Under the pieces are notes generated by a model, which saw only the letters and a program-made list of their open reading frames with translations, did no database searches and was not told where the DNA came from. Positions 7,694-43,611 of a stretch of DNA of 64,000 nt are shown here, one piece after another. Location: assembly GCA_004213955.1 (NCBI GenBank), contig SGZL01000002.1:10982-74981 (forward strand), written 5' to 3'. Origin of the DNA: Gammaproteobacteria bacterium. GTDB lineage: Bacteria > Pseudomonadota > Gammaproteobacteria > Magnimaribacterales > AG-339-G14. The first letter of the stretch is position 1. The number at the start of each line of letters is the position of its first letter. Both the position numbers and the translations under genes were made by a program.

Positions 7694-8970
7694 TCAGAAC
7701 CATTTTCGGTTTCTTTACTAGAAATTTTTAAAATCTTTGCGAATTTAATCATATTGTCTTTGATTAAAACTGTTTCAATTACGTAATTATTTAAATTAAT
7801 AGAAATATTCGACTCAGGAATTGTTTCTATTTTTTCTAAAATTAAACCATTAAGCGTCACTGGGCCTTCCAAAGGTAAGTCCCAGGAAAGTTTTTTATTT
7901 ATTTCTCTAATAGATACACTTCCATCTATTAAAAAGCTTCCATCTTTTTGTTCTTGAAAATCTATTTTGTCAGAAGCTTGATCGGATGATAATTCTCCAA
8001 CAATTTCTTCCAAAATATCGTTGATACTAACAAGTCCTTTTACATTTCCATACTCGTCTACAACTACAGCAGAAGTTTTATTATCTTTTTGGAAATTGAA
8101 GAGTTGGTTGCTTAAAGATGTATTTTCTAAAGCAACATATACTCCATCTACAAATTCCATAAAGCTATCAAAAGATTCTCTTTCATCTATAAGAAAACTT
8201 TTAATACCATTCAAGTCTATTATTCCCTTTAAATTATCAAGATTTTGTTCGTATATTGGGATAATTTCTTTAGAATTTTCAGAAACTTTTTCCATAAGCT
8301 GCTCAAAACTGTCATCTAAATCAATCCCTACTATTTCATTTCTAGGCGTCATAATTTCATCTATCAAGATTACGTCTAGGTCAAGAATACTTATCAACAT
8401 ATCTTGATACCTTTTTGGTATCAAATCTCCCGAGTTTTCTAATACACTTTTTAATTCATCTGTTGTTATGTCCTCGTTAGAGTCATTTTTATTTACATTT
8501 AACAAACTTAGCAAAGAGTTGGAAAAAAAGTTAACAATCCAAATCAAGGGGTATAAAACCTTTTGGAGTATTTTCAAAATAGCTGATGCTGGCAAAGCTA
8601 TTGTTTCTGCGTTCTTTGCAGCAAAAGTTTTAGGAGTAACCTCGGCAAAAATTAATATTATTATCGTTAATATTATTGAACCAATGAAAACCCCACTGTT
8701 ACCGAAAAGCTCTAAACACAATATGGTTGTAAGAGCTGCAGCAAGAATATTTACAAAATTATTTCCAATTAAAATAACTCCAAGCAATCTATCTGGGCGT
8801 TGAAGAAGTTTATCTGCTCTTTTTGCCGAACGATTGTTTTGCTTAATTAAGTGTTTTAATCTGTATTTATTAAGCGCCATCATTCCTGTCTCAGCACTTG
8901 AAAAAAATGCAGACAACACGAGAAGAATTGAAATACTGGATAGAAGCAACCAGATAGGAATTTCGTTCAA
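7690..8970 (-). CDS. CNNM/CorB-type transporter (DUF21 + CBS pair + CorC_HlyC domain)
   Basis: 426 aa. N-terminal FFSSAETGMMALNKYRLKHL (DUF21), a central CBS region, and a C-terminal transporter-associated domain. Confidence 0.85.
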   Translation of the reverse strand: MNEIPIWLLLSSISILLVLSAFFSSAETGMMALNKYRLKHLIKQNNRSAKRADKLLQRPDRLLGVILIGNNFVNILAAALTTILCLELFGNSGVFIGSIILTIIILIFAEVTPKTFAAKNAETIALPASAILKILQKVLYPLIWIVNFFSNSLLSLLNVNKNDSNEDITTDELKSVLENSGDLIPKRYQDMLISILDLDVILIDEIMTPRNEIVGIDLDDSFEQLMEKVSENSKEIIPIYEQNLDNLKGIIDLNGIKSFLIDERESFDSFMEFVDGVYVALENTSLSNQLFNFQKDNKTSAVVVDEYGNVKGLVSINDILEEIVGELSSDQASDKIDFQEQKDGSFLIDGSVSIREINKKLSWDLPLEGPVTLNGLILEKIETIPESNISINLNNYVIETVLIKDNMIKFAKILKISSKETENGSD

Positions 8971-9023
8971 ATTAGATAAAGAGTTGTTTATTCATTTAAC
9001 TTCCAAATTATAGAATGTTTTAC

Positions 9024-9051
9024 TTGAATACCAAATCAATTTAAATAGAAT
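9024..9051 (+). promoter_or_regulatory. Candidate sigma-70 promoter of the rpsP operon
   Basis: TTGAAT (9024-9029), a 16-nt spacer, then TAGAAT (9046-9051), about 20 nt upstream of the rpsP ATG. Confidence 0.35.
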
Positions 9052-9072
9052 AGCCCCTTAAATAATAATTTT

Positions 9073-9648
9073 ATGGTTACTATTAGACTATCTAGATCAG
9101 GCGCAAAGAAAAAACCTTTTTTTCACATTACAGTTACTGATTCGAGAAAACCAAGAGATGGGCGCTTCATTGAAAGAGTTGGATATTTCAATCCTATTGC
9201 TAAAGGAAAAGAATTAAGACTTAAAGTAGACCATGAAAGAATAGATTATTGGCTGGGAGTCGGTGCGTCATTAAGTGACAGGGTTGCACTTTTAGTAAAA
9301 CAATCAAAATTCTCTCCTGAAGAAGAAAAAAATTATCTAAAGTCAAAAGAAGACAAAAGGTTAAAAGTTCTTGCTAAAAAGAAAGAGAAAGCTTTAAAAG
9401 ACTCAGACACTGAAGTTTCCGAATCTAGTGAATCAGACTCTAGTGAAACAACTGAAGCAGCTCCAGCAGAAGAAACTCCTGAAGCCGAAGCAGCTCCAGC
9501 AGAAGAAACTCCTGAAGCCGAAGCAGCTCCAGCAGAAGAAACTCCGGCAGAAGAAACTCCTGAAGCCGAAGCAGCTCCAGCAGAAGAAACTCCGGCAGAA
9601 GAAACTCCGGCAGAAGAAACTCCTGAAGCCGAACAAAAAAAAGATTAA
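9073..9648 (+). CDS. rpsP: 30S ribosomal protein S16 with a ~110-aa C-terminal extension
   Basis: The first ~80 aa ([25 protein letters not shown]...[12 protein letters not shown]) align with canonical 82-aa S16. The ORF then continues for 191 aa total, through a K/E-rich segment and then acidic PAEET repeats. Confidence 0.9.
9455..9633 (+). repeat. In-frame tandem repeat array inside rpsP (33-nt unit with nested 15-nt subunit)
   Basis: GAAGCAGCTCCAGCAGAAGAAACTCCTGAAGCC is repeated head-to-tail with perfect identity. The subunit GCAGAAGAAACTCC(G/T) occurs 7 times and encodes 7 PAEET pentapeptides. Confidence 0.92.
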
Positions 9649-9663
9649 TACAACCCTCATTTA

Positions 9664-10170
9664 ATGAAATCCCAAAATGACGAATACATTTTGGTTGGCA
9701 AAGTTGGTAAACCCATAGGATTGAAGGGATGGGCAAAAATTAATTCTTACACGAGACCCGAAGAAAATATTGGAAATTATGAAAGTTTCTTCCAGGGTTC
9801 TAAAAAAAAGCCAATCAGTATCGAAAGTTCAAAAAAATCAGGTAAAAATTTAATTATTAAATTTAAAAGTATCGATACAAGAGAAGATATTGAAATACTA
9901 AAAAATAATGATCTGTTTATTAAAGCTATTGATTTACCAGAATTGAAAGATAATGAATTTTATTGGAAAGATTTGATTGGCATGGAAGTTTATAACCTTA
10001 AAAAAGAATATTTTGGAAAGGTTAAAGAATTGATTGAGGCTGGCTCAGGAGATGTAATGGTAATTAAAGAAGACCGAGACAAGTCTATTTTGATTCCTTT
10101 TGAATATGGTGATTACGTAAAAGAAGTAAAAGATAATAAAATTTTTGTAGACTGGGATAGAGATGACTAA
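9664..10170 (+). CDS. rimM: 16S rRNA processing protein RimM
   Basis: 168 aa. VGKVGKPIGLKGWAKI start; position between rpsP and trmD. Confidence 0.9.
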   Translation: MKSQNDEYILVGKVGKPIGLKGWAKINSYTRPEENIGNYESFFQGSKKKPISIESSKKSGKNLIIKFKSIDTREDIEILKNNDLFIKAIDLPELKDNEFYWKDLIGMEVYNLKKEYFGKVKELIEAGSGDVMVIKEDRDKSILIPFEYGDYVKEVKDNKIFVDWDRDD

Positions 10171-21605: not shown

Positions 21606-23147
21606 TTAAAATAATGGTTTAAAAATATTTCTTTCCGAAGCATGTTTCACTTCTCCTTTAATTCCTAACAATTCATTTTCCGTCAATTTTTTTAAAAAAC
21701 TTTGTTCACCCAAAATGTTAGCTATGAATTTAGATTTGTCCTCTAATTCACCAATCACGATACCATATTCTAAGTTTTTTCTCCCTTGAACAATTGTGTA
21801 AGAAATAACTTTACCAAGTCCGTTTGGTTTAGTATTAAAATTTTTAATTTCCCTTGAATTTATTTCACTCTGTAATTTAATAAAATCTTTTTCCCAATCA
21901 ATTTCTTGAGGAGGCTTACAAGAAAAAATATTTATCGCATGTTTTGTCAAAAACCAACTATTCGCAGTAACCATTCCATATTCATTAGGATTTGACCTTA
22001 ATTTTTTTACCATTTCTGATGAAGAAAACATAGTGTAAGCGTTTCCTGGCCCACCAAAATAAGGCAAGCCTCCAGTAACAGTTAATGGCCGATCATCATT
22101 TGAATCCAAAGAAAGCTCTTTCTGTGCAATTTGAACAGCAGAGGGAAAACAAGAGTAAATATCGAGAAAGGAAATCTCGGATAAAGATATTCCAGCTTGA
22201 GATAATACTTCTTTCCCACATTCTCTTATCGCAGGCGATTCATTCAAACTAGGGCGCTTTGAAACATTCCAAATATCGTTTAATACACAAGAGCCATGAA
22301 TATAAACTTTTTTATTTTGAGGAATCTTAAGTTCTTTTGTGAGTTTTTCAGACATCACAACTAAAGATGAAGCCATGTTAACCCTTATCATCGAATTTAA
22401 GTATTTTGTGTAAGGAAAACCTACCAATCTATTCGAGTCAGAAATTTCTTCAATTTCTTCCGGTGTTCTAAATTTTGGAAACCATGCTTTAGGGTTTAAA
22501 GATGCTACCTTTGAGAATTTACTAAATAATTCTGAACATTCCTTTAAATGTTCTTCACTTGATTGGGATTTACTTGATCTAATAGCGTTTGCAAAAATAG
22601 GATAAACATTCGAGGGAAGGTCCATATAGTGTTTCTTTTCTTCTTCAGAAAAGCCTTCATCATTTATTCCAATTATTTCAGGTTTACCTCCAGCCGAATC
22701 TTCCCAATTTAACTTTTCACCAGACTTCAATTTTGAAATCATAGTTTGAAGTACTTCGCCACCAGAAATTAGTGCACAATGAATTTCATTAGCATGGATT
22801 TTTTTTGATATTTCTTGAAGAAGAACTTGTGGAGCATTTCCTCCCATCCCTGAGTAAAGTTCAGAGATATCTTTTTTGACTCCAATTTTATTCGCTAATG
22901 ATCTGGGAAAATTACTATATCCAAATCTGGATTGATTAGTTGCTGTTGAAAAATCTACTGAGAATCTTACTACTCCAATAGCATCAAGATAATCTATGAC
23001 GTTTTTTATACCCGAATCCTGAAAAGCAAGTTCGCTTGCTTGTCCCAGTAAAGTTAGTGGGTCAGGCCCATTAACTTTTCTCTTATCAATAATATCCCCA
23101 ACACCCACGATTACTGGAGTATTGTCTGGTAAGTTGAAATTAGTCAT
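21606..23147 (-). CDS. Thiolase-fold protein (acetyl-CoA acetyltransferase-like, long form)
   Basis: 513 aa. General resemblance to thiolase-like proteins of about 500 aa (GVGD..., GGNAPQ, SGGEV, GGLPYFGGPGN). Catalytic residues were not verified by eye. Confidence 0.55.
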   Translation of the reverse strand: MTNFNLPDNTPVIVGVGDIIDKRKVNGPDPLTLLGQASELAFQDSGIKNVIDYLDAIGVVRFSVDFSTATNQSRFGYSNFPRSLANKIGVKKDISELYSGMGGNAPQVLLQEISKKIHANEIHCALISGGEVLQTMISKLKSGEKLNWEDSAGGKPEIIGINDEGFSEEEKKHYMDLPSNVYPIFANAIRSSKSQSSEEHLKECSELFSKFSKVASLNPKAWFPKFRTPEEIEEISDSNRLVGFPYTKYLNSMIRVNMASSLVVMSEKLTKELKIPQNKKVYIHGSCVLNDIWNVSKRPSLNESPAIRECGKEVLSQAGISLSEISFLDIYSCFPSAVQIAQKELSLDSNDDRPLTVTGGLPYFGGPGNAYTMFSSSEMVKKLRSNPNEYGMVTANSWFLTKHAINIFSCKPPQEIDWEKDFIKLQSEINSREIKNFNTKPNGLGKVISYTIVQGRKNLEYGIVIGELEDKSKFIANILGEQSFLKKLTENELLGIKGEVKHASERNIFKPLF

Positions 23148-29830: not shown

Positions 29831-29858
29831 ATTTTTCTTTTTTGTTACTTAGCAAGTA

Positions 29859-29905
29859 ACTCAACATATTGTGGGGTAAAAACTTAATTACACAAGATAC
29901 GGTGT
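29859..29905 (-). promoter_or_regulatory. Pair of NrdR boxes in the nrdA promoter region
   Basis: Box 1 is 29859-29874, ACTCAACATATTGTGG (reverse complement matches the acaCwAtATaTwGtgt consensus at 13/16 by my count). Box 2 is 29890-29905, ACACAAGATACGGTGT (palindromic ACAC...GTGT ends). Offset is 31 bp, the typical tandem NrdR-box spacing. Confidence 0.6.
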
Positions 29906-29943
29906 TTTTTATAAAAAAGCAATAGAATAATTTATGAAATTTG

Positions 29944-29963
29944 GGTGGATTAAGTGTGGATAA
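29944..29963. promoter_or_regulatory. Two direct DnaA boxes upstream of the nrdA promoter / immediately upstream of glpK
   Basis: TGTGGATAA at 29955-29963 is a perfect complement of TTATCCACA. GGTGGATTA at 29944-29952 is a 7/9 match, 11 bp away. The E. coli nrdAB promoter is known to carry DnaA boxes. Confidence 0.5.
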
Positions 29964-29973
29964 CTATATATAA

Positions 29974-32361: not shown

Positions 32362-33552
32362 ATGAATTTTAAAGTAAAAACTTATAATGCCATAGCCGAA
32401 ACCGGAATTTCATTACTAAAAGAATCAGATTTTTCTGTCTCTGAAACAGAAGATTCACCTGATGCTATGATACTAAGAAGTTATAAATTGACTGATCAAG
32501 ACATTGAAAGTTCAATTAAGGCTATTGCAAGGGCAGGAGCAGGAGTAAACAACGTGCCCGTAGACTTATGTTCAAAAAATGGAATAGTTGTCTTTAACAC
32601 TCCCGGAGCGAACGCTAACGCAGTAAAAGAGATAGTCTTGGCTGGCTTATTATTATCGTCAAGAGGAATTTATAGTGGAGCAAACTACGTCAATGAGATT
32701 GAAGGCATAGATTCTGGTGACTTGAAAGGTCACATAGAGCAAGGAAAGAAAAATTTCAAAGGAAGAGAATTAAAAGATGGCGTTTTAGGAGTCATTGGAA
32801 TGGGAGCTATAGGAGCAAAGGTAGCTGATATGGGAGTTATGCTAGGAATGGACGTTATAGGATATGATCCTGCAATATCTGTGGAAGCTGCATGGAAGCT
32901 CCCCAATATGGTTTCAAGACGTGACAATCTCGAATCTGTGTTTGCAGAATCTGATTACTTAACCTTGCATATACCCGCAATAGAAGAAACTAAAAACTTA
33001 GTCAGTAAAGATTTACTGAGTAATTCAAAACAAGGCTTAAAATTAATCAATTTCGCTAGAGACGAAATTGTCGATTCAAAAGCCGTAATTGATGCATTGG
33101 ACTCTGGGAAATTAGGTGGATATGTTACTGATTTTGCTGATCTTGGTTTGATAGAAAGAGCAAAATTAAAAGGAGATGTCATCATTTTACCTCACATAGG
33201 CGCCAGTACTAGACAAGCTGAAGAAAATTGTTCAGTTATGGCTGCTGAACAGCTTAAAGACTTTTTAGTAAATGGAAATATAATTAACTCTGTCAATTTT
33301 CCTGAGTTAGTTGAACCAAGAAAATCAAGATTTAGAATCACTCTATCAAACAATAATATTGCAGGTATGATTGGTCAAATAACGACCATTCTGGCAGATA
33401 ATAATTTAAATATTTTGAATATGGTCAATAAAAGTAAAGGAGACGTAGCTTATAACGTCATTGATACTGATGTGGAACCATCAAAATCTGTTGAGGAGGG
33501 GCTGTCTAACCTTGAAGGCGTTATTAATGTAAGGGTTATAAAAAATGACTAA
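32362..33552 (+). CDS. serA: D-3-phosphoglycerate dehydrogenase with C-terminal ACT domain
   Basis: 2-hydroxyacid dehydrogenase blocks (GVIGMGAIG NAD fold, LHIP, PHIGAST) plus an ACT-like tail. I start at ATG 32362 (MNFKVKTYN). The tracked 32305 start adds 19 unlikely residues and overlaps argF. Confidence 0.85.
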   Translation: MNFKVKTYNAIAETGISLLKESDFSVSETEDSPDAMILRSYKLTDQDIESSIKAIARAGAGVNNVPVDLCSKNGIVVFNTPGANANAVKEIVLAGLLLSSRGIYSGANYVNEIEGIDSGDLKGHIEQGKKNFKGRELKDGVLGVIGMGAIGAKVADMGVMLGMDVIGYDPAISVEAAWKLPNMVSRRDNLESVFAESDYLTLHIPAIEETKNLVSKDLLSNSKQGLKLINFARDEIVDSKAVIDALDSGKLGGYVTDFADLGLIERAKLKGDVIILPHIGASTRQAEENCSVMAAEQLKDFLVNGNIINSVNFPELVEPRKSRFRITLSNNNIAGMIGQITTILADNNLNILNMVNKSKGDVAYNVIDTDVEPSKSVEEGLSNLEGVINVRVIKND

Positions 33553-34300
33553 GCCTGTAGCTATTGTAACTGGCGCCAGCAGAGGTGTTGGGAAAGCTGT
33601 AGCTATATTACTAGCTGAAAAAGGATGGAATTTGACTCTAACCTGCTCAAGTTCGCTCGAGGAGGCTCAAAAGGTTGCAAAAGAATGTAATGATCTTGGT
33701 GCAGAAACTTTAGTCTTAACTGCCGATGTATCCGATGAATCAAAATGTCAAGAAACAGTACAAAAAACCATTGATAAATGGAAAAGATTAGATACTTTAG
33801 TTAACAACGCTGGAAGAACTGTATTCAATGCTCATGAAAATCTAGCTGGCCTTAGTTCTGAAGATTTTGTAGAGATTTATAAAACAAATACTGTTGGTCC
33901 CTACATGATGATTAAAGAAGCAGAAGAATTTTTAAGACAAAGCCCAAATGCCTCGATTGTAAACATTGCATCTATTGCAGGAGTAATTGGAGTTGGTAGT
34001 TCTATAGCTTATGTTGCCTCAAAAGGTGCATTAGTAATGATGACAAAGTCATTGGCGAAAGCTTTAGGCCCAATTCGTATTAATGCAATCTGTCCTGGAT
34101 TCATAGAAGGCGAATGGTTGAAAACAGGATTAGGCGACGAAACCTATGAGGCCACTAAAAGTTTTATTGAATCAAGCACGCCATTGAGCATGGTCTGTAA
34201 TCCAGAAAAAGTTGCCAAAGGAGTGTGGTTCTTTATTGAAGACGCTGTAGCAACAACAGGCGAGACTTTAATCTTGGACGGCGGATTCCATTTAAAATAG
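33545..34300 (+). CDS. Short-chain dehydrogenase/reductase (FabG-like)
   Basis: 251 aa. VTGASRGVGKA, NNAG and YVASKGA (Tyr-x3-Lys) motifs. Confidence 0.8.
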   Translation: MTKPVAIVTGASRGVGKAVAILLAEKGWNLTLTCSSSLEEAQKVAKECNDLGAETLVLTADVSDESKCQETVQKTIDKWKRLDTLVNNAGRTVFNAHENLAGLSSEDFVEIYKTNTVGPYMMIKEAEEFLRQSPNASIVNIASIAGVIGVGSSIAYVASKGALVMMTKSLAKALGPIRINAICPGFIEGEWLKTGLGDETYEATKSFIESSTPLSMVCNPEKVAKGVWFFIEDAVATTGETLILDGGFHLK

Positions 34301-34610
34301 TTTTAAATAGAATTAAATAACCTTTTTGCTAACTCCTAAAAAATCAACACATTTATTCTTTTTTTTAGAATAATAGTTAATAAAAAAAAATTCTTTTAGA
34401 TAAGACTTGATAAATAAAATCAAAAGTTACACACAAATAAAAGAAAAGTGTACTCCCGTTACTTAAAATCAATCTTTAGTGCACTTTTTTTGAACAAATT
34501 GTTATAGTTTACATAAACTATTGATTTAATTGACTTTTTTACATTGATTAAATTTTGATCAATTTATAAAAAACCTTTTTATATTAAGCGCTTAAGAGAA
34601 ATAAGCGTTT

Positions 34611-34645
34611 TTATCCAAAGAGTTATCCACAGTTTCTGTGGATAA
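34611..34645. promoter_or_regulatory. Cluster of three DnaA boxes (two perfect, inverted, forming a 23-bp palindrome)
   Basis: TTATCCAAA 34611-34619 (8/9), TTATCCACA 34623-34631 (9/9), TGTGGATAA 34637-34645 (9/9, opposite strand). The last two form the palindrome TTATCCACAG-TTT-CTGTGGATAA. The cluster ends 30 nt upstream of the ung ATG. Confidence 0.6.
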
Positions 34646-34675
34646 AAAAAATGAGTTTGGTAGCATTATATTTAT

Positions 34676-35344
34676 ATGATTTGTCTCCCAGAAGATTGGC
34701 AAAAATTTCTCAATAATAGGCAATTAGAAAAGCGACTGCTATCGATTAAGCGCATATTAGAAAAAGAAATTAAGGAGGGTAAAACCATATTCCCCAATTC
34801 TAGAAATATTTTTAGGTCTTTAGAATTGATTGCTCCAGAAAAGGTCAAAGTGGTCATTATTGGTCAGGATCCTTATCATAATTTTAATCAAGCTAACGGT
34901 TTAGCTTTCTCTGTATCTAAAGATCAACCTTTCCCCCCGTCTTTAAAAAATATTTTTTTAGAAATGGAAAAAGACTTGAATAAAAAAATTAGCTGCAATG
35001 GCGATTTTGAGAAAATTGCCAAACAGGGAGTTTTATTTTTGAATTCATTTCTTACTGTCGAGGCTCATAAGCCTGGATCACATAAAGATATTGGATGGGA
35101 AGTAATAACGGACTTAATAATAACTTCTTTGAGTAAACAAAAAAACATCGCATTCATTTTATGGGGAAATTTTGCAAAAAATAAAAAAATCTTAATAGAT
35201 CTCAAGCACAACTTAGTTTTAACTTCTTCACATCCATCACCATTTTCAGCGAATATAAGTTTTTTTGGCTCAAGACCTTTCAGTAAATGCAATTCTTACT
35301 TATATTCAGTTGGCAAAGATCCAATTAATTGGGCTTTAGACTAA
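34676..35344 (+). CDS. ung: Uracil-DNA glycosylase (family 1)
   Basis: 222 aa. VKVVIIGQDPYH (water-activating loop), GVLFLNSFLTV, and HPSPFSA (Leu-intercalation loop region). Confidence 0.92.
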   Translation: MICLPEDWQKFLNNRQLEKRLLSIKRILEKEIKEGKTIFPNSRNIFRSLELIAPEKVKVVIIGQDPYHNFNQANGLAFSVSKDQPFPPSLKNIFLEMEKDLNKKISCNGDFEKIAKQGVLFLNSFLTVEAHKPGSHKDIGWEVITDLIITSLSKQKNIAFILWGNFAKNKKILIDLKHNLVLTSSHPSPFSANISFFGSRPFSKCNSYLYSVGKDPINWALD

Positions 35345-36052
35345 ACTAAAGTTATCGAAATTAAATACTTCCCCATTTTTATTATATAGACCCTCTGATC
35401 TCTCTCTATTTTTGATGTAAAAAAGTCCTATTTGACCAATTTTTGAAGCAACTTTCCCCACGACTTTTTGATTATCATCAAAGATATCGTCTCCCTCACC
35501 AATATTTTTAATTGATTTCGAAGAAATAAAGAATAAACCGGATTTCAGTTTTGCCCTGTAATGCATCCTTGCAATAACTTCTTGGCCTGTATAACAACCT
35601 TTGTCGAAGCTGATAATTTTTAAATTTTGATAACCTAGATCGTGAGGTGTAAATATTTCTGTTGTTGAGCTATTAATTTCGCACAAACCATTTTTTATAC
35701 AATTTGTTTTCCAATCTTCAATTTTTATAATATTAAAGCCCTCGGGCTCATTATTGAGCAAAACCATCTCTGATTTGTAAAAAACCTTGTATTTTTTTAG
35801 TGTTTCAAAGGCTTTTTCTGCAATTGTATTTTCTAATATTAAGTCAAAACTCTCATCATCAATTTTTTTAACCCAAAGAAGGGCAATAATTCTTCCTTTT
35901 GTGCTGCAGATAACATTTTTTTGTAATTCTTCCTTTTCTATTAATTCTAAGTCATTAGAAAGTTGTCCCTGAAGGAATTCAAGAGAGTCTTTTCCCTGGA
36001 TTCTGATAATTTTGTGACTTGAAGATATTTCCATAGTCTTATATTTTATCAA
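35336..36052 (-). CDS. ygfZ: Folate-binding Fe-S cluster repair/tRNA-modification protein YgfZ
   Basis: 238 aa. The diagnostic K-G-C-Y-x-G-Q-E motif is present as DKGCYTGQEVIARMHYR. Confidence 0.85.
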   Translation of the reverse strand: MIKYKTMEISSSHKIIRIQGKDSLEFLQGQLSNDLELIEKEELQKNVICSTKGRIIALLWVKKIDDESFDLILENTIAEKAFETLKKYKVFYKSEMVLLNNEPEGFNIIKIEDWKTNCIKNGLCEINSSTTEIFTPHDLGYQNLKIISFDKGCYTGQEVIARMHYRAKLKSGLFFISSKSIKNIGEGDDIFDDNQKVVGKVASKIGQIGLFYIKNRERSEGLYNKNGEVFNFDNFSLV

Positions 36053-36070
36053 TAATAGTAAAATTAACCT

Positions 36071-36319
36071 ATGAACAGTCTTATTGAAGAAGCTAAATTT
36101 CGAAGCCGTCGAGGTTTAAATGAATTAGATTTGGTACTTGAGCCATTTGCCAAAATAAAGTTGGATTCTCTTGATCAAAGAGAATTGGAATCTTATCTTG
36201 AGTTAATGTCGTGGGAAGACAATGATTTAGCTGATGTAATTTTGTATGGAAAGACTTGCGAAAACATGGATTTACAAAAGTTAATTACGAAAATAATTGA
36301 TTTTTTTAGTGAAATTTAG
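36071..36319 (+). CDS. sdhE: FAD assembly factor SdhE (YgfY)
   Basis: 82 aa. RSRRGLNELDLVLEPF contains the conserved RGxxE motif. Divergent from ygfZ, as in E. coli. Confidence 0.85.
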   Translation: MNSLIEEAKFRSRRGLNELDLVLEPFAKIKLDSLDQRELESYLELMSWEDNDLADVILYGKTCENMDLQKLITKIIDFFSEI

Positions 36320-43373: not shown

Positions 43374-43423
43374 GTATTGCCTTTCTTCTAGAAATGTTCT
43401 AATATTGCACAGTAATCGTTCAT

Positions 43424-43448
43424 CTTTTGCACTATATAAATGCAAAAG
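43424..43448 (+). promoter_or_regulatory. Palindrome CTTTTGCA-N9-TGCAAAAG enclosing a TATATAAA -10-like element (candidate operator/promoter of the small-protein cassette)
   Basis: An 8-bp perfect inverted repeat flanks CTATATAAA. No convincing -35 at 17 bp, so promoter assignment is tentative. Confidence 0.3.
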
Positions 43449-43611
43449 ACGGAAGTAGGAAGATAGGAAAACCTCTTTCTTCTATAGAGGAGAAAGGTTA
43501 GCAAGTACCCAAAGTGGGAACGAGACCGAATATCTAACGAAGGAACGCGTGGAGAAGGGTGTACGTCGGGAGATGTATGTACGAAATCGAAACGAAAACT
43601 GGAGGCACGAT
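43449..43611 (+). promoter_or_regulatory. Purine-rich, GGA-dense 5' leader (possible CsrA/RsmA-binding leader or sRNA moiety)
   Basis: Nine GGA triplets between 43451 and 43603, the last inside the SD GGAGG (43601-43605). A 12-bp imperfect hairpin at 43471-43498 (ACCTCTTTCTTC-TATA-GAGGAGAAAGGT). G+C is locally higher than the surroundings. Confidence 0.4.

Follow-up and report, generated by a model that had tools for sequence, protein, structure and literature searches.

What might explain why 375 bp of gene-free DNA in front of a uracil-DNA glycosylase gene end in three closely spaced DnaA boxes, and what would DnaA be doing there? The DNA belongs to a SAR86-cluster marine gammaproteobacterium; the Ung protein encoded in the 64-kb window (the whole stretch of DNA that was analysed) recurs exactly in TARA and other ocean metagenomes, and its closest genomic relatives are in SAR86 single-cell and metagenome assemblies. 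The gap (34301-34675) lies between an SDR gene (33545-34300, plus strand) and ung, and no other ORF-free gap of the window is as large, as the original prediction had it; the next largest measure 312, 250 and 230 bp, and those of 312 and 250 bp are occupied by tRNA genes. Its GC content is 0.22, against 0.33 for the window. The right end of the gap, 34611-34645, reads TTATCCAAA-gag-TTATCCACA-gtttc-TGTGGATAA, which bears out the earlier count of three boxes within 35 bp (8/9, 9/9 and an inverted 9/9). The perfect 23-bp palindrome claimed for this place is there too, its 10-nt arms being 100% complementary, and the boxes do end 30 nt before the ung ATG. Together with the sites recognized to their left, and with conservation followed through a set consisting of the window and five other SAR86 genomes carrying ung (79-52% amino-acid identity), the features of the gap and its downstream gene are as follows.

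34301 to 34426, no strand assigned: AT-rich left part, with the SAR86-specific conserved blocks AAAAAATCAAC, TTTTTTAGAAT and TTCTTTTAGAT in the alignment.

34427 to 34435, plus strand: distal DnaA-box-like site TTACACACA (TGTGTGTAA in the frame of the element), 7/9, 175 bp beyond box III.

34514 to 34526, minus strand: predicted IHF-consensus site AATCAATAGTTTA (WATCAANNNNTTR), 84 bp beyond box III and reading away from the core.

34546 to 34560, no strand assigned: predicted Fis-consensus palindrome GATTAAATTTTGATC (GNNYANNNNNTRNNC), 15 bp long, 50 bp beyond box III.

34611 to 34619, plus strand: DnaA box III, TTATCCAAA, 8/9, conserved in 6/6 SAR86 lineages, in the form TTATCCAGA in L012, the most distant of them.

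34623 to 34631, plus strand: DnaA box II, a 9/9 match that reads TTATCCACA on the plus strand and is unchanged in all six SAR86 lineages.

34637 to 34645, minus strand: DnaA box I, a 9/9 match that reads TTATCCACA on the minus strand and is unchanged in all six SAR86 lineages.

34658 to 34666, plus strand: putative extended -10 of ung, TGGTAGCAT, as read from the alignment.

34676 to 35344, plus strand: ung, encoding a family-1 uracil-DNA glycosylase (Pfam UDG), which travels with the element.

Boxes I and II stand head-to-head across a 5-bp spacer; box III follows 3 bp past box II and points the same way as the latter. The minus-strand sequence of the trio is TTATCCACA-gaaac-TGTGGATAA-ctc-TTTGGATAA. 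The DARS core is defined by opposed boxes I and II (TTATNCACA...TGTGNATAA) 5 bp apart, by a box III that is 3 bp off and oriented like box II, and by a non-coding location. In the SAR86 gap the opposed pair occupies 34623-45, TTATCCAAA at 34611-19 takes the place of box III, and the site is intergenic, with no skew or strand switch within 30 kb on either side. The SAR86 trio fits the sequence definition of a DARS core exactly. In E. coli, the opposed boxes I and II, 5 bp apart, are essential for ADP release through a head-to-head DnaA dimer, and DnaA on box III supports the complex (PMC6868365, Sugiyama et al.). The DARS1 core of E. coli reads TTATCCACT-attcc-TGTGGATAA-cca-TGTGTATTA, in which box II is perfect, and the DARS2 core reads TTATTCACC-ttttc-TGTGGATAG-agt-TGTGAAGAA; the identity of the latter is fixed by published deletion primers that bracket the DARS2 35-mer (PMC4585315). 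All three loci share one plan, namely box I, 5 bp, an inverted box II, 3 bp, and a box III running along box II, although the core boxes are imperfect in DARS2 and boxes I and II are perfect in SAR86.

The trio upstream of ung, the conservation of which in relatives had been proposed as a check, is present at the same position in all five SAR86 relatives, and its only changes are two bases in L012. Identity across the six lineages is 94-100% for the core and 85-100% for the IHF site, compared with 39-52% at the four-fold degenerate sites of ung, which are saturated. In L012 an extra gene has come between the SDR gene and the element, and the element remains beside ung. The Fis consensus is retained in 6/6 lineages despite substitutions, with the L012 version, GGTTAAATTTTAACC, preserving the dyad, and the IHF consensus is exact in 5/6 and 8/9 in L009. 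Only one Fis-IHF pair so spaced is present in the window, where 0.013 would be expected. The distal site is oriented like boxes II and III, and its AGTTACACACA is kept in 6/6 lineages at an identity of 92-100%. The Fis, IHF and distal sites at +50, +84 and +175 are thus common to all six. Among 89 loci compared, 75 of which are ung loci of other phyla, the palindrome is restricted to those of SAR86; a tblastn search with an approximate E. coli Fis query, confined to the window and the compared loci, gave no match to a fis gene.

Does this layout occur outside SAR86? Metagenomes were scanned with the pattern TTATCCACA-HNNNN-TGTGGATAA, which leaves out the SAR86 copy, the spacer of which begins with G on both strands. 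At 59 of the 77 usable head-to-head sites a further box (at least 6/9, nearly always with a TGTG start) lies at exactly +3 on just one flank and points the same way as its neighbouring box, and no other offset is enriched among the 77. The consensus of the resulting family is TTATCCACAaaaNcTGTGGATAActcTGTGgAt, with which the SAR86 spacers gaaac and ctc are compatible; SAR86 box III differs in having T (C in L012) where all 59 members have the G of TGTG. The 59 sites form 51 distinct sequence clusters with a locus GC of 0.36-0.73. Beyond box III, the members share three further features.

+50 to +52 beyond box III: Fis consensus, often GGTCAAAAAWTGACC, in 19/59 members against 0.35 expected.

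+84 to +87 beyond box III: exact IHF consensus, in every case pointing outward from the core, in 13/59 members against 0.025 expected.

+154 to +185 beyond box III, with the mode at 168-171: DnaA box matching at 7 or more of 9 positions and pointing the same way as boxes II and III, in 40/53 members against 6/97 control flanks.

Control flanks give the same picture for the two protein sites: 18/53 members on their box III side, and 3/97 controls, have a Fis consensus between +48 and +54, and 13 of the 53 members with enough flank, and 1/97 controls, have an exact IHF consensus between +82 and +89. The best IHF-like match within +40 to +130 sits at +84 to +87 in about 35 members. All three enrichments (Fis, IHF and distal box) are confined to the box III side, and the SAR86 offsets of +50, +84 and +175 fall inside every family peak. 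Defined by a box at +3, a Fis site at about +50, an IHF site at +84 to +87 and a TGTGnATAA-like box at about +156 to +182, the environmental module includes the SAR86 locus. A profile (nhmmer) built from the DNA of the metagenome members beyond the trio, with both SAR86 and the trio left out, has its best match in the window at 34510-34590 on the minus strand, a weak one (E = 0.07), and it also matches the homologous place in all five SAR86 relatives, again weakly (E = 0.07 to 9e-5). Recurrent neighbours of the family are hemW-like radical-SAM genes, exbB/tolQ, xseA and rpmE.

The fixed plan of trio, Fis, IHF and box seems to be an undescribed variant. It is possible, and we propose it tentatively, that trio, 50 bp, Fis, about 20 bp, IHF, about 75 bp and distal box make up an apparently undescribed canonical DARS architecture, present in many beta- and gammaproteobacterial lineages at varied genomic positions. 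If this were so, DNA-catalysed recharging of DnaA would be ancestral and widespread, and would have been kept in genome-streamlined, slow-growing ocean bacteria, and E. coli DARS1, DARS2 and perhaps datA could be viewed as derived versions of the trio-Fis-IHF-box plan. A DnaA-reactivating function for the whole family would be carried over from E. coli by architecture alone.

Of the E. coli loci, DARS2 offers the closest terms of comparison, although the two are not orthologous. E. coli DARS2 requires DnaA, IHF and Fis. Like the SAR86 element it is intergenic (rppH-mutH) and adjoins a DNA-repair gene, mutH in place of ung; it has an IHF site beyond box III in the same orientation (AATCAATAGTTTA at +84 in SAR86, IBS2 at +74 in E. 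coli) as well as a Fis site, a predicted one in SAR86, and another DnaA box whose distance from the core is nearly the same (175 bp in SAR86 and 176 bp in E. coli). The order of sites is different: in SAR86 the core is followed by Fis (+50), IHF (+84) and the box, whereas in DARS2 it is followed by IBS1/2 (+58, +74), Fis (first consensus at +110) and box V. The Fis site at +50, found in 6/6 SAR86 lineages and 19/59 family members, therefore lies between core and IHF and not beyond IHF as in E. coli, and box V (+176), unlike the SAR86 distal box, points the opposite way and overlaps Fis sites. Because of these differences in site order and box V orientation, the SAR86 and environmental layout is a variant and not an orthologue of DARS2. 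The SAR86 element does not occupy the orthologous mutH or uvrB position, its neighbour being ung, and the similarity of its flanks to those of E. coli is limited to motifs. DARS1 (bioD-uvrB) resembles it in lying upstream of a DNA-repair gene, uvrB as against ung, and two of its features are reminiscent of the SAR86 plan, an IHF-like sequence at +86 that matches weakly (7/9) and a TGGGGATAA box at +188; unlike that plan, DARS1 depends on neither IHF nor Fis, requires 42 bp of flank past box III, and has no Fis consensus at +50. DARS homologues have been described at the uvrB and mutH positions in beta- and gammaproteobacteria close to E. coli, and similar sequences in many proteobacteria. Judged by its sequence, the locus beside ung in SAR86 is a new member of the DARS type.

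We consider that the right two-thirds of the gap, 34427-34645, probably function as a DARS2-type, IHF- and Fis-assisted DnaA-reactivating locus, which also overlaps the ung promoter region; the function is inferred from the arrangement of predicted sites. ADP-DnaA would fill boxes II, I and III, the 5-bp head-to-head spacing of boxes I and II would make the AAA+ domains of DnaA meet, and ADP would be expelled as in E. coli, with the DnaA bound to box III stabilizing the trimer. Fis would sit 50 bp past box III and IHF 84 bp past it. Since the bend that IHF puts into DNA is one of about 180 degrees, a U-turn centred at about +90 would fold back the far arm and bring the DnaA of the distal box beside box III; with its own centre at about +180, the distal box would fold onto the outer edge of box III, and the fourth DnaA bound there could join the trimer. 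Apo-DnaA would then leave, take up ATP and raise the initiation potential at an oriC located elsewhere. A loop logic like this proposed fold has been suggested for datA, and DNA looping has also been described at the IHF site of oriC. The conserved plan suggests that the IHF U-turn sets a fourth DnaA next to the trio. Control of the nucleotide state of DnaA by DNA sites (DARS1, DARS2 and datA) has been studied in mechanistic detail in hardly any organism but E. coli, and the mechanism may be far more widespread than shown so far.

The likeness to datA makes a locus of opposite activity the main rival, since datA shares both the 84-bp spacing and a box beyond the bend. The original prediction had joined DARS and datA in a single proposal, of which the DARS side is strongly supported and has been sharpened by the 9-5-9-3-9 geometry and by the sites shared with 59 loci, and the datA side is kept as an alternative. 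At a datA-like locus, a DnaA-IHF loop would promote hydrolysis of DnaA-bound ATP (DDAH) and lower the initiation potential. In datA the acting boxes are 7, 2 and 3, one IHF site separates box 2 from box 3, and there is no dependence on Fis. This IHF site is 84 bp from box 3 and has the same orientation as in SAR86, box 2 lies beyond it and is oriented like the SAR86 distal box, and datA is the best, although non-significant, E. coli match of the family profile; the same loop logic, with an IHF site placed 84 bp away from one DnaA box and another box past the bend, could be read into both. However, the 9-5-9-3-9 trio is absent from datA, where boxes 4 and 3 stand head-to-head at 3 bp, and no Fis consensus was found at that locus, for which the literature describes only IHF. 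Its outcome, moreover, is ATP hydrolysis, whereas the 5-bp head-to-head pair present in SAR86 is the very element shown to drive ADP release. A datA-like role for the SAR86 element is unlikely.

The DnaA-reactivating role must also be weighed against a simpler one, in which the element is primarily a promoter operator where DnaA, with Fis and IHF, represses or times ung and the nucleotide state of DnaA is unaffected. The boxes stop 30 nt short of the start codon, and the -35 position belonging to a conserved TGnTAnnAT falls under them. In the relatives the extended -10 is TGnTAGCAT in L008-L011 and TGATAAGAT in L012; the -35 position of this putative promoter falls inside box I, and the ATG comes 9 nt after the hexamer. 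Because box I overlaps the -35 position, occupancy of the core probably modulates ung transcription as well. The element also stays with ung when the upstream gene changes, as in L012, and the earliest description of E. coli DARS1 was as a DnaA site in the regulatory region of uvrB. A DnaA regulon is made plausible by a second conserved site upstream of nrdA, which includes the third perfect box (29955-63) reported earlier; that box was confirmed, as was the intergenic position of all three.

29944 to 29963, minus strand: separate DnaA site with two boxes in tandem, GGTGGATTA-ag-TGTGGATAA, in the interval that divides nrdA from an FGGY kinase gene.

Conservation of this nrdA/FGGY-kinase site in the SAR86 relatives indicates that canonical DnaA boxes are under selection in the SAR86 lineage, and there is a hint that expression of ung and nrdAB is tied to the replication cycle in SAR86. 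Promoters regulated by DnaA, those of nrdAB and uvrB P3, are known in E. coli, and as is predicted for SAR86 their boxes overlap the promoter of a DNA-metabolism gene; these operators consist of one or two boxes and are not known to have the fixed Fis, IHF and distal-box scaffold of SAR86. Simple repression would need no such architecture with fixed spacing over about 190 bp. Elsewhere the four-site module stands beside unrelated genes, those named above as recurrent neighbours, and of the genes on the box I side 27/50 read away from it and 23/50 toward it, an inconsistency of orientation on which promoter coupling in the environmental family was rejected. Nor is there a perfect DnaA box upstream of ung in any of the 75 non-SAR86 ung loci; just one perfect box is found near an ung gene, that of L032, and it is within the coding region. 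Since the genes beside the module are unrelated and read in either direction, control of a promoter cannot be the main reason for its existence, and an element that serves primarily as an operator is improbable; of the original proposal of a DnaA-controlled ung promoter, what stands is a possible local side effect of boxes that overlap the -35 position.

Less probable still is a passive DnaA titration site, or a chance cluster without specific activity. Three high-affinity boxes would bind DnaA in any case, and single perfect boxes are no more than modestly enriched in the window (3 against 0.50 expected, with 3 reached in 2/100 shuffles). Against this, the 35-bp three-box arrangement, with up to three mismatches allowed, occurs once in the window and is expected 0.00 times (100 shuffles), and the trio stays invariant across lineages whose synonymous sites are saturated; titration, moreover, would not call for Fis, IHF and distal sites to keep set distances that recur at dozens of unrelated loci.

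There is a very slight chance that the gap is the chromosomal oriC of SAR86, a DnaA cluster with IHF and Fis sites by an AT-rich unwinding region. It offers 375 bp of non-coding DNA at 22% GC with conserved sites for DnaA, IHF and Fis, all three of which act at E. coli oriC, and it holds the sole cluster of perfect boxes in 64 kb; the oriC of E. coli-type gammaproteobacteria likewise combines DnaA boxes and IHF and Fis sites in AT-rich non-coding DNA. That oriC differs, however, in having many more boxes, low-affinity head-to-tail arrays, a 13-mer unwinding element and a polarity switch. The SAR86 site has four boxes only, not a many-box array, and no repeated unwinding element, and neither dnaA, dnaN nor mnmG is among the 30 larger ORFs scanned in the window. 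Cumulative GC skew climbs through the whole window, with no minimum and no change of gene strand at the position of about 34.5 kb where an origin would have placed them. When resolved by strand (GC3 and all-site), the skew leaves the plus strand slightly G-rich on both sides (left, about +0.02; right, about +0.01), and the plus strand carries most coding bases on both, 65% to the left of the site, groEL included, and 80% to the right. The lack of a polarity switch in strand-resolved skew and gene orientation argues that the element is not oriC, and the test is a modest one when taken alone since the skew signal is weak. Members of the family, in their 51 clusters, occupy varied contexts, and Bac_DnaA is not in the top 25 of 69 Pfam families encoded by the 98 ORFs that flank them. 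Taken together, skew and family context make an origin very unlikely, and this part of the original prediction is not supported. Its likening of GATCAATTTATAA (34557-69) to the E. coli 13-mer fares little better: that sequence and the TTCTTTT..AGAT repeats are present, and the resemblance is better read as half a Fis site. As a 13-mer unwinding element the candidate was rejected; GATCAATTTATAA is unrepeated, its GATC is not conserved (it is absent from L012), and it forms the right half of the Fis palindrome. The trio and its flanking sites, for which a DnaA-reactivating role is preferred, provide a sequence signature by which such loci can be sought in whatever genome, and one that aids the reading of non-origin DnaA-box clusters, which origin predictors may mis-call.

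Other candidates for the gap were set aside. Rfam gave no match at E up to 1 in 34250-34720, and a conserved RNA structure was rejected, the RNAalifold covariation term being positive (penalizing) and the sole strong helix being the invariant box palindrome. The gap contains just ORFs of 21-43 amino acids with low-complexity products, on which a small protein was rejected, and a search for a terminator in the gap found none. Seven metagenome contigs with an identical Ung, considered for population variation, differ by 0-1 positions in the gap; they represent the same strain and are uninformative for that reason. The left part, 34301-34426, is 64-68% identical in L008-L011 and just 31% identical in L012, so it probably lies outside the core module. 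Within this AT-rich part, a promoter-like TCAACA-16-TAGAAT is found at 34344-71 on the plus strand.

The arrangement found upstream of ung in the SAR86 window, a trio of DnaA boxes accompanied by Fis, IHF and distal DnaA sites, extends beyond the SAR86 relatives: approximately 59 diverse environmental loci, among the metagenome loci L090-L169, carry the trio together with the Fis, IHF and distal-box sites at fixed offsets. Recurrent neighbors in this environmental family are hemW-like radical-SAM genes (7-8), exbB/tolQ (6), xseA (5) and rpmE (4). The environmental loci also exhibit a minor second box peak 12-14 bp past box II, possibly representing a box III'.

How does this arrangement compare with the E. 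coli loci? Immediately upstream of mutH in E. coli MG1655 (locus L089, 1952-1986) there is a second cluster, TTATCCCAG-ctttc-TGTGGATAA-cat-GGTGTAAGA, with the exact 9-5-9-3-9 DARS geometry; its distance to the recognized DARS2 core is approximately 280 bp. An IHF-like site (8/9) is located 84 bp past its box III. E. coli datA (locus L210, 678-927) has its IHF site 84 bp from box 3, oriented as it is in the module of SAR86 and the environmental loci. On the far side of the bend, ctc-TGTTTACAA comes directly after box 2, which gives the look of a box II/III pair. This shared 84-bp IHF spacing and the likeness of box 2-ctc-TGTTTACAA to such a pair suggest that DARS and datA have either a common ancestry or a common design rule.

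L012, the most distant SAR86 relative, helps to place the left border of the module: an additional 392-aa gene (8570-9748, - strand) has been inserted there, separating the dehydrogenase gene from the element, and the conserved portion of the element begins close to the distal box. Further upstream in the window is a promoter-like sequence:

34344-71, + strand, promoter-like TCAACA-16-TAGAAT, conserved in L008-L011

A second, similar element approximately 30 bp downstream (the two together spanning 34344-34402, + strand) is kept in the same four relatives, and both face ung through the DnaA/Fis/IHF module. By analogy with a report on datA, transcription reading through the module from these elements could displace IHF. 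At the start of ung (34658-34678), a conserved, putative extended -10 hexamer is 9 nt from the ATG in the window, or 6 nt in L010 and L011, and no Shine-Dalgarno sequence is apparent, which suggests that the ung mRNA is leaderless or nearly so. Immediately 3' of ung (35336-36319) there is a ygfZ-like gene, which encodes a GCV_T domain, as well as sdhE. A 2026 paper (PMC13036160) connects E. coli YgfZ with the dynamics of IHF binding at both datA and DARS2; the proximity of the ygfZ-like gene to the module is probably a coincidence.

DnaA boxes are also present in the nrdA/FGGY-kinase intergenic region (29831-29973), which is highly conserved among SAR86 relatives:

29944-29952 and 29955-29963, tandem DnaA boxes GGTGGATTA-ag-TGTGGATAA, between nrdA and the FGGY-kinase gene

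The boxes stand 11 bp ahead of the kinase ATG and, on the other side, 125 bp upstream of nrdA. The E. coli ribonucleotide reductase is controlled by DnaA, and by analogy the tandem boxes look like DnaA control of this enzyme.

Elsewhere in the window, a 513-aa ORF (21606-23147, - strand) without a Pfam match (E up to 1e-6) sits between genes for a malate/lactate dehydrogenase and a short-chain dehydrogenase. Between era and recO there is a riboswitch match:

43415-43551, + strand, RF01739 (glutamine riboswitch), score 42.2 bits, gathering score 35

The ORF that follows directly is 54 aa long and matches DUF4278 weakly. Because the 53-position model matches 137 nt, the aptamer may be tandem or interrupted.
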